Part shown: piece after piece, positions 52,901 to 55,900 of the stretch | How positions within the stretch are numbered: the first letter of the stretch is position 1 | Layout of the letters: each line of letters opens with the position of its first letter | Origin: Chrysomallon squamiferum | Lineage: Eukaryota > Animalia > Mollusca | Assembly (NCBI GenBank): GCA_012295275.1 | Contig: CM022675.1 | Span: 5,084,001 to 5,148,000 of the forward strand | Reading direction: 5' to 3' | DNA: 64,000 nt | Notes under the pieces: model-generated | Databases searched by the model: none | What the model was told of the DNA's origin: nothing | Seen by the model: only the letters and a program-made list of their open reading frames with translations | Program-made: the position numbers and the translations under genes

Positions 52901-55900
52901 ACAATAACATAAAAATGTAATATTTATAATTTTTTGCAACATAAAGCAACATAATAATTAAGATAAATATTAATAAATTAACACAGGTCCGTGGTCTGAC
53001 AGAAAACAAGAAGAAATGTTAGAAGAATATTTTACACTGGATAAAAAACAAACTTGGTGGGAGGCAGCGTATTCTGGCTGTGAGGAGGCAGGAGGCAGAC
53101 TCGTTGTTCATCATTCTGGTTTAGACGAAAACAAACTTTATTCTGTAATGGAAGAAGACAAAGACTATTGGGTAGGAGCTTTTCAGACGTATACACCGTG
53201 GATGTGGACTGGTAGGTATAATTTACTGGTTTCATTTTGTGTTTATAAATCTCAGTTCAGTAACAAAATACAGTTTTAAATTATTGTCACTTTCTCAGAG
53301 ACAAATGAACCGTTATTTCAACACAAAGGAGAAACAGATACAACTGAACTTACAAGTGATTACACGTTACAAGATAACAGCGCATTCTCTTGTTTCATCA
53401 AGTGTAGAGCTTCTTCTGATACTGTGGGTCTACAAGTAAGTTTGTTTGTTTGTTTGTTTTGTTTTGTTTTGTTTTGTTTTATTTATTTATTTAGTTTTAT
53501 TTATTTTTGTTTATTCATTTATTTATATTATATTATTTTTATCATTATTTTTTAATTCTTTCTCATTTTCTAACTTTTTTTTTTAAACCGAGGTGAACAA
53601 CAATAATGACAATAAAAAACAACAATAACAACAACAACAACTACAACAACTACTAATAATAATAATGTTAATAATAATAATAATAAGAAGAAGAAGAACA
53701 ATAAGAACAGCAACGTCGACGATGACAACAACAATAATAACAACAACAACAATAATAATAATAATAATAACAATAACAATAACAATATCTAAAAGAAACA
53801 AAAATAACAAGAAAGTTGTTTTGTTTTCAGGGTAGACGTTGTTTTTGTAAAATTGCTGACAGTGGACTAAGTAAGAGAGAAGATTGTGTCAGATGTGCAG
53901 GAAGCTACACAGAATTCTGTGGTGGAGAAAACTTTTATTTCTGTGTACAAGATTGGTAAGAGTCGAAACAAAATTTAAATTGCATTTAATAGTAGTAATA
54001 GTAATAATGTAATTGTAATTTAAATCTTTTAAAATATAGTTAATGTTTCCTTTAATAAATTGTGTTTAAATATAAAATATTGGATGTTTCCTAAATATTC
54101 TAATAAATTTATAATGTATATATATTTTAGTAATGTTACTGACAAGTGCACAAATGAATAAGTAAACAAACAAACAAATAAACACTTAAAATGTACATAA
54201 AAGTTGTTAATTTCTGCACATTTTTGTCATAAAGATCTTCCGGCTTCAGTGAAGATTATTCACAAAGTCAACGGCGACTCCAACTGTGGCTACATCAGAT
54301 ACGACGACGACGACGAAGTGCTAAAACTTGGATTTCAAAACTGTGAAAAACAGACAGCATACAGTGTTTGTGCAGGTAAACTATTAAATATAAACTATTC
54401 TCTAGTAATAAGGAAACAAGAAAATAAATAAAATTTCTATTAAATTTATCAGTATCATTCTCATTGCATTGATCATATGTATTATTCTCCCTACTCTTGT
54501 TTTTGTTTATCTTCTCTTATTGTTGTTGTCGTCGTCGTCGTTGTCATCATCATTATGTTTTGAAGTGAGTGTTGTTGTTTTTCTTCTTCTAGGTATTGTT
54601 ATTGTTATTTTTATTATTATTATTGTTACATTAGGTTGTTCTTGTTGCTGCTGTTGCTGCTATATATTTTCTTTCTGTTTTTATTGTGTTGTTGTTTATT
54701 TGTTTATTTTTATTTTATTTCATGGAATGACTTAAGTCAATCATGGACAGACAACTGTGACTCAAACATATGTATTACATCAGATTCAAATGAACAAACA
54801 GACTGGGTCAGTTCAAACGCTAACTGCAATCTGTCCAAACTAACCAATGAGACGTTGTTGTCATTAACAACGCTTTTATCACGAGACTACAGTGAAGATG
54901 ATTTCTGGGTTGGACTTCGGAGGCAGGTTGAATGGCGATGGATTAATGGTAATGAGTTAAAGTGAACTTTTGACGATATGAATACATATTTTTTTTATTT
55001 TTGGTTTGTTTGTATTTGTTGTTGTTGTTGTTTTAATTAACAAGTCATAAATAACATTTATACATATAAGTTGGTATGTTATTTAGTGTGCGTGATATAT
55101 AATAAATTATAATGCTGCCAACTTTGTCCCTTTACAAACAGTAACAGATCGCTTGAACAGACCAGAGCAACGTGTCCACCCTGTACTCAATGACGTCATC
55201 ACTGCAGAACATTCTTAACATTTTTATACTACAATTGTAAAAGTTTAAATTAGAGCTGACAGCAAAAACTGAAGTAAAACAAGTTCAGAATGTTTTATAT
55301 TTATTCTTTCATTGAGTTTTAAGTCGTAATAGTGGTAGTAGTAGTAGTAGTATATTTGTCAGTACTAGTAGTCGTAGTAGTAACAGCATTAGTAACATCA
55401 GTAGTACAGTAGTAGTAGTAATATTTGTAGTGATATTAGTAGTAATAGCAGCATCAGTAAGAGTAGTGACAGTTGCAGTAGTAGAAGTAGTGGTGATAGT
55501 GCTGCTGGTAGAAGGGTAACTGCAGTAGTAGTAGCAGCAGCAACAGTAATAGTTGTAGTATCTTTTTATACTTTTCGGAGGTACAGATGTGCCATTTTTT
55601 TCTTTTTCTAAAAGCTTCAGTAATAAATGAAAATTACAGTAATACAACGAATAAGCAGTGGTAGTAGTGGTAGTAGTAGCGGTAGTAGCAGTGTAGAAGA
55701 AATAATAGTATTTTTTATACTGGCCGAAATTATTTTATTTTATTTTATTATTATTTTTTTTTTAATAGGTTCAGTAATGAATACAAATTATCATTACACA
55801 AAGAATCAGGGAAGTATGTCATGGAGAAAGATCAAGAAATGGCGATCTTCGTCCTTTTACTACGAAATACATATTGTTAAAAAAATTATAAACTCGAATT

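Follow-up and report, generated by a model that had tools for sequence, protein, structure and literature searches.

How is a C-type lectin domain (CTLD) completed when its first half is followed on the same chain by a WSC domain, another C-half and an entire second CTLD? We investigated this question in a window of 64,000 nucleotides (the whole stretch of DNA analysed), which is AT-rich, intron-bearing animal DNA. The gene studied comprises ten exons on the + strand, from an ATG at 49923 to a stop at 58364-58366, and its introns are all GT-AG. The encoded protein contains, in order, a signal peptide, a CTLD N-half, a WSC domain (two exons), a CTLD C-half, a second CTLD (two exons), a Ser/Thr stalk, a transmembrane helix and a 163-residue tail, distributed over the exons as follows.

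Exon 1, 49923..49989, + strand: ATG and a signal-peptide-like stretch of 22 residues, phase 1 at its end.
Exon 2, 52987..53211, + strand: phase 1-1; N-half of the first CTLD, with beta1, helix 1 bearing cysteine C1a, helix 2, the WVG strand, the hinge and WxW.
Exon 3, 53299..53435, + strand: phase 1-0; first part of the WSC domain, with 2 cysteines; 39% to the Gigantopelta protein P0002.
Exon 4, 53831..53955, + strand: second part of the WSC domain, with 5 cysteines and the CGG motif; in the assembly, one T too many in the run 53933-53936.
Exon 5, 54235..54375, + strand: phase 1-1; CTLD C-half, beta3-beta4-beta5, with cysteines C2a, C3a and C4a.
Exon 6, 54751..54948, + strand: N-half of the second CTLD, with a cysteine pair, helix 1 bearing C1b, WVGL and WRW; 38% to P0002.
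Exon 7, 55769..55927, + strand: last CTLD C-half, diverged; C2 and C3 lost, last cysteine C4b kept.
Exon 8, 56258..56506, + strand: Ser/Thr-rich stalk, 38% S+T.
Exon 9, 57559..57634, + strand: transmembrane helix.
Exon 10, 57874..58366, + strand: cytoplasmic tail with 11 tyrosines; YYNV, YSQL, YDTI and an ITIM-like SVYYNV; stop.

The first exon is backed by a near-identical exon at 39300 in an upstream copy of the gene, and in an RNA contig an exon-1-like end runs straight into 52987. The acceptor of exon 6 is uncertain, from 54727 to 54784, with the coverage of one RNA-library contig beginning at 54730. All the motifs of exons 2-5 quoted in the initial annotation were found in their places, within GT-AG boundaries, and its assignment of exon 2 to the N-half alone and of exon 5 to the C-half of a CTLD was upheld. 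A Pfam scan of exon 2 (53% to P0001 of Gigantopelta aegis) matched Lectin_C over positions 3-57 of 107 only, with E 4e-4, below the cut-off; exon 5 carries the expected motifs, and the family profile aligns this stretch to the C-halves of PLA2R and DEC-205 CTLDs. Helix-1 and WVG motifs are present in both exon 2 and exon 6. The cysteine positions of the C1-C4 and C2-C3 pairs are all four found across exons 2, 5 and 6, exon 7 being without C2 and C3. No BLASTP similarity was detected between exon 7 and P0002, and only the last strand of this exon matches the family profile. When exons were scanned singly, no Pfam family matched exons 3, 4 or 7, and exon 5 yielded one weak unrelated family and nothing else.

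As assembled, exons 3 and 4 together measure 262 nt, exit in phase 2, which produces a stop where exon 4 meets exon 5. The four-T run at 53933-53936 puts the CGG and SVY motifs into different frames. We compared four sequencing runs (two DNA and two RNA, of 11 listed; contigs only), and one base was missing at this run of Ts in all four, with depths carrying the deletion of 135/143, 3352/3352, 56/56 and 14/14. Removal of the base restores phase 1-1 for the two exons, and an RNA contig in which exon 3 is spliced directly to exon 4 carries the same one-base gap. The extra T is probably an assembly error; the contigs come from a multi-copy family, and sister copies may be their source. Exons 3 and 4 had been described as a phase-1 module, and this holds in the read-supported frame (4/4 runs) but fails in the assembly as it stands, with its phase 2 exit and stop. 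The broken frame, the divergence of exon 7 and the partial or broken state of several neighbouring copies could also be read as signs that the studied copy is a pseudogene, with a true frameshift in exon 4 and a decayed exon 7. We consider this very improbable, as the extra base is absent from every run compared, the RNA contigs are spliced and show 0-1 differences from exons 2-4, and exon 7 is alike in all three copies in having lost the same pair of cysteines while retaining the last one.

In the read-supported frame, exons 3 and 4 scored 29.4 bits against a WSC profile for which 17 repeats were taken from 10 unrelated multi-WSC proteins, compared with 8.7 for the best of 500 shuffles, in agreement with the earlier recognition of a WSC domain here. 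The family profile matched yeast Wsc1 (7PZ2) with E 1.3e-11, and the PAN/apple-type WSC fold of Wsc1 and Kremen was matched in the predicted models of two relatives (Foldseek probability 1.00 against 7PZ2 in both; TM 0.67 and 0.66 by target, rmsd 3.3 and 3.1). The CGG motif, defined as a WSC motif in the portion of PMC9024836 available, is present in exon 4. Of the 8 WSC cysteines, the window copy retains 7, the first being missing, and most relatives have 6, without the first disulfide; the canonical eight are kept in Lymnaea P0012, P0032 and P0054. By its cysteines, the window insert is a degenerate WSC domain. In P0032 the whole 320-residue CTLD-WSC-CTLD module occurs twice in tandem, with an eight-cysteine WSC domain in both.

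The WSC domain follows the WxG/WxW motifs and precedes the beta3 cysteine, which is the long-loop position of a CTLD, where the initial annotation had put it. Its further description as a phase-symmetric, shuffle-compatible module fits a RefSeq isoform of Haliotis cracherodii, P0037, that is without exactly this insert. The expectation that domain scanners would under-call the domain was also borne out: Pfam WSC (PF01822, gathering score 27.8) was matched in 14/22 family members scanned, and above the cut-off in 2/22.

Outside the window, a HMMER search with P0001, the nearest relative, identified 57 proteins. By our own reading, most of this ectodomain is present in 24/57; a further ten or so consist of fragments or single halves, and the remaining proteins are of the ordinary CTLD or multi-WSC kind. 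Named carriers are Gigantopelta aegis, Haliotis rufescens, H. rubra, H. asinina, H. cracherodii and Lymnaea stagnalis, and the 30 proteins that we looked up are annotated throughout as 'uncharacterized' or 'unnamed'. The layout is thus shared by Gigantopelta, four Haliotis species and Lymnaea. Seven Gigantopelta members are apparently on one contig, which suggests a cluster. Word-index searches were insensitive (1/7, 1/182 and 2/7997 candidates), and it was the HMMER search that recovered the family. ESM Atlas feature matches were all below 0.9 and serve as leads only, and no conserved stretch usable for a related-locus search was found.

The order of the exons allows two ways of closing the first CTLD. 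The initial annotation had joined exon 2 with exon 5 into one CTLD holding the WSC domain in its long loop, with the cysteine of YSGC bonded to that of SVC. On this point it was not supported by AlphaFold2 ectodomain models of Gigantopelta P0002 (pLDDT 87.9, pTM 0.84) and Lymnaea P0012 (pLDDT 84.0, pTM 0.81), in both of which the half from exon 2 is completed by that from exon 7. These models are of relatives of the window protein, 23% identical to each other; the alignments under them are shallow (29 and 27 rows) and mostly shared, and for each protein we examined the top one of five models.

We compared the models with solved structures. In three VIA-align comparisons, 50/50 of the matches listed in each were single CTLDs spanning from model residue 1-17 to 327-334, with fits of 95-117 residues at 2.0-3.4 Å and best Z scores, among the matches listed, of 14.5, 15.2 and 14.1; the CTLD double-loop fold is thus found in the relatives' predicted models at Z 14-15. 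Chains of E- and L-selectin (1-120) were mapped to model residues 16..328, starting at beta1 in the half from exon 2 and ending at beta5 in the half from exon 7, where an unswapped first model would have placed a solved CTLD at residues of about 16-213, or at 222-328 for the second domain. As all the listed CTLD matches run from model start to model end, the first N-half folds with the last C-half in both models. Among the 50 listed matches of one comparison, no solved chain covers more than one CTLD of the model. Foldseek found no contiguous CTLD in either model: its contiguous alignments to single CTLD chains, over about 120-160 columns, had an rmsd of 14-23 Å, and halves of 57-70 columns fitted at 2.5-9 Å.

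The remaining halves, from exons 5 and 6, are predicted to form an inner, circularly permuted CTLD, with the exon-2 and exon-7 halves as the outer one. In the first model the inner halves have a pLDDT of about 85-97 in most ten-residue blocks; the inner domain is without a direct structural match because the aligners follow sequence order. DSSP assigned unusually long strands through both WxG motifs (59-69 and 270-284), and we therefore place the putative crossover at the short hinge that follows the WxG strand, an arrangement in which the WSC domain would hang from the inner domain. The second hinge has 6 residues in 25/25 aligned sequences, compared with 7-9 in 18 canonical repeats; the first has 6-7, and 6/18 of the canonical repeats also have 7. 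Profile scoring found the exon-7-type half to be more CTLD-like than the exon-5-type half in 14/17. The corresponding scoring of the N-halves (N1 above N2 in 14/17) was set aside, the training repeats having been found with an N1-bearing query.

A swap of halves entails the disulfides C1a-C4b and C1b-C4a. We found C1a and C4b to be kept in every sequence that covers them, the mis-started model P0034 aside. Among 25 ectodomain units, C4a is lost in 3/25 and C1b in 4/25, and both are lost in two, P0024 and the upstream copy of the window, which sit in separate clades. This count leaves out the near-identical orthologues P0062 and P0064, and P0001, P0007, P0027 and P0057, which are without exon 6. 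Three units (P0006, P0037 and P0039) show single losses, which fit neither pairing and would give a free cysteine under the swap too. In the window copies, exon 7 has lost C2 and C3 and kept C4b, even in the copy without C1b. The co-loss of C4a and C1b (hypergeometric P=0.057) agrees weakly with a half-swap.

These observations bear on the unswapped topology, in which exons 2 and 5 form the first CTLD around the WSC domain, exons 6 and 7 an ordinary second one, and the swap is an artefact of modelling similar tandem domains. It is the simplest reading of the sequence order. With the WSC exons excised, exons 2 and 5 of the window align end to end with a CTLD profile, and their beta3 and beta4 cysteines stay in register with it. 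P0001 is without exons 6-7, and its ESM Atlas model aligns with CLEC4E over 18-266 (TM 0.51 by target, low-confidence), so that the halves of exons 2 and 5 can be joined in a model that has no rival half. The co-loss of cysteines is, moreover, not significant. However, both full-ectodomain models are swapped, and the cysteines divide into an invariant pair (C1a/C4b) and a dispensable pair (C4a/C1b), such that all 7 losses would leave a lone cysteine in the unswapped arrangement. Removing exons 3-4 did raise the score against our own 47-repeat CTLD profile (not that of Pfam) from 31.0 to 33.8 bits, but 52/200 controls with a shuffled exon 5 scored as high. We judge the unswapped topology unlikely, and we give somewhat better than even odds to the half-swap that pairs exon 2 with exon 7.

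Several RefSeq isoform models skip parts of the ectodomain: the WSC domain (P0037), exon 5 (P0015), exons 5 and 6 (P0070) or exon 7 (P0003), and P0007, P0027 and P0072 are without exon 6. Those missing exon 6, and likewise P0015 and P0003, could not form the full interlock. The database isoforms P0015, P0070, P0071, P0072 (Haliotis rufescens LOC124111983), P0037 and P0061 skip single phase-1 ectodomain cassettes, and P0070 is reduced to one CTLD, in which the halves of exons 2 and 7 have the WSC domain between them. A tentative idea, to which we give less than even odds, is that the halves act as phase-1 cassettes, splicing dropping the WSC domain (P0037) or the whole inner domain (P0070), such that a mollusc-wide family of interlocked receptors, each with an outer CTLD from both chain ends around a circularly permuted CTLD and a WSC domain, would remodel its binding surface and vary its recognition combinatorially.

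We identified three further copies of the gene, whole or partial, within the window.

Upstream tandem copy, 39300..45170, + strand: same exon order, near-complete.
Downstream copy, 60760..64000, + strand: exons 6-10 alone recognisable; continues beyond the window end.
Partial copy, 34783..35730, + strand: exon 2 and, beyond a long GA repeat, the transmembrane exon with the tail; middle exons missing.

The upstream copy has lost both C4a (exon 5) and C1b (exon 6), and its frame, as assembled, breaks near 40285 and in the tail. Its exon 2 is 94% identical in DNA to that of the studied copy, with about 30-50% protein identity over exons 3-7, an unevenness that suggests gene conversion or a chimeric assembly. 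The partial copy may reflect a deletion or a collapsed assembly. Intron 1 of the studied gene holds a truncated duplicate at 50761-50817 (+), consisting of the first 57 bases of exon 2 plus the acceptor, after which the promoter-like region found upstream is repeated (51072-52428, matching 47027-49415). A degenerate tandem repeat of 46-50 bp at 47790-48400 contains garbled stretches typical of long-read consensus errors, and CCCTAA-like telomere-type arrays within a longer repeated unit occupy 59750-60760, the place at which the downstream copy should have its exons 1-5. Elsewhere in the window are a pogo/Tigger-like DNA transposon remnant at 32585-33623 (-), with BrkDBD, HTH_Tnp_Tc5 and DDE_1 matches in two frames, and two overlapping open frames at 535-1246 (+) with the look, by eye, of a hAT-type transposase remnant.

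As to function, the Ca2+/sugar motif of CTLDs, defined in the available part of PMC6468738 as EPN or QPD in the long loop and WND in beta4, has no counterpart in the window copies, which contain neither EPN/QPD nor WND; calcium-dependent sugar binding by either CTLD is therefore unlikely on sequence grounds. A QPD or WND string occurs somewhere in the first 420 residues of 4/25 sequences, the canonical position not being implied. Whatever the topology, the WSC domain might instead be a glycan-binding module of the beta-glucan type that replaces the calcium/sugar site and makes the protein a receptor for microbial glycan patterns. It occupies the long-loop position; the accessible text of PMC9024836 describes a fungal protein, SiWsc3, that binds beta-1,3-glucan with three WSC domains; and the tandem expansion and tyrosine tail would fit an immune receptor. 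Against this, the same text reports single WSC domains without a glycan pocket, no direct glycan binding by Wsc1, and a Kremen WSC domain that works in protein complexes. Moreover, most family members have only 6 of the 8 WSC cysteines, and the second CTLD, which has no insert, also lacks EPN/QPD and WND. We regard a glycan receptor of this kind as doubtful.

The tail contains, among its 11 tyrosines, three YxxL/V/I strings and one ITIM-like string by plain count, with no spaced ITAM pair shown. Taken together, the tandem expansion, rapid divergence, mucin-like stalk and YxxL/V/I tail point to a putative receptor of diversified recognition that would signal by tyrosine phosphorylation, and we favour, by inference, an immune or symbiont-sensing role. 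Our preferred explanation, to which we assign a probability of about 0.62, is a mollusc type I receptor encoded in a tandem cluster, whose CTLDs, predicted to interlock, and WSC domain would present one rigid three-domain surface for calcium-independent recognition, signalling through the tyrosine-rich tail, possibly of the SH2 type.

The feature is real and constitutes a new arrangement of known domains, whose function we infer. Should the predicted fold hold, it would represent a natural and conserved instance of tandem CTLDs that exchange whole halves within a single chain and hold a third domain nested inside, from Gigantopelta and the abalones to Lymnaea. It would show how far the CTLD scaffold can be re-wired, account for the 'uncharacterized' annotation of the family, and reveal an expanded, overlooked receptor family in abalone, which are farmed, and in vent snails. 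In the literature that we searched, with most subscription papers outside reach, we found no description of a WSC domain nested in a CTLD, which the simpler topology would share, or of a circularly permuted CTLD. The available parts of two further articles list only a WSC transcript (PMC4581086) and report C-type lectins as abundant in Gigantopelta with no mention of WSC (PMC7895826). Uncharacterised bivalve proteins with both CTL and WSC, presumed to be immune (PMC10140915), show that the two domains meet in one mollusc protein and may include this receptor family; nesting or swapping is not described in the text available.

Comparisons with better known systems place the receptor among several partial likenesses. 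Snaclecs likewise have no EPN/QPD or WND, and their two CTLDs are locked by an exchange after the WIGL strand (PMC6468738, in the part available). However, in snaclecs the long loop alone is swapped, between two chains, whereas in the receptor whole C-halves, including beta5, are predicted to be swapped within one chain, with a WSC domain in addition. An exchange of the snaclec type was not found, as in the predicted model the last beta5 belongs with the first N-half, within a single chain, and the likeness implies no venom role. Collagen IV NC1, placed in the SCOP C-type lectin-like superfamily, is listed as an outlier whose tandem subdomains swap segments (PMC3779223, as far as accessible), but it is a distant fold relative, a matrix assembly domain without WSC, and is absent among the 50 matches listed. 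The mannose-receptor family (MRC1, PLA2R, DEC-205) shares tandem CTLDs and a type I receptor layout, and the family profile matches its CTLD-linker-CTLD stretches; its domains, in contrast, fold in series, and only about 110-117 model residues align to them. In the polycystin-1/REJ group, polycystin-1 has both WSC and CTLD. Known WSC domains (PF01822; yeast Wsc1 7PZ2, human Kremen1 5FWS) share the fold, the CGG motif and six core cysteines, but stand in series, whereas that of the receptor sits inside a CTLD. Finally, canonical CTLDs (Ly49A 1QO3, NKp80 8QMD, CLEC5A 2YHF, DCIR 5B1W and the selectins) share their fold with the outer domain as predicted (fits of about 110 residues at 2.1-2.5 Å, with Z 14-15), and their calcium-independent members likewise lack EPN/WND; each is, however, one continuous stretch, whereas the outer CTLD of the receptor is predicted to be assembled from both ends of a 320-residue ectodomain.
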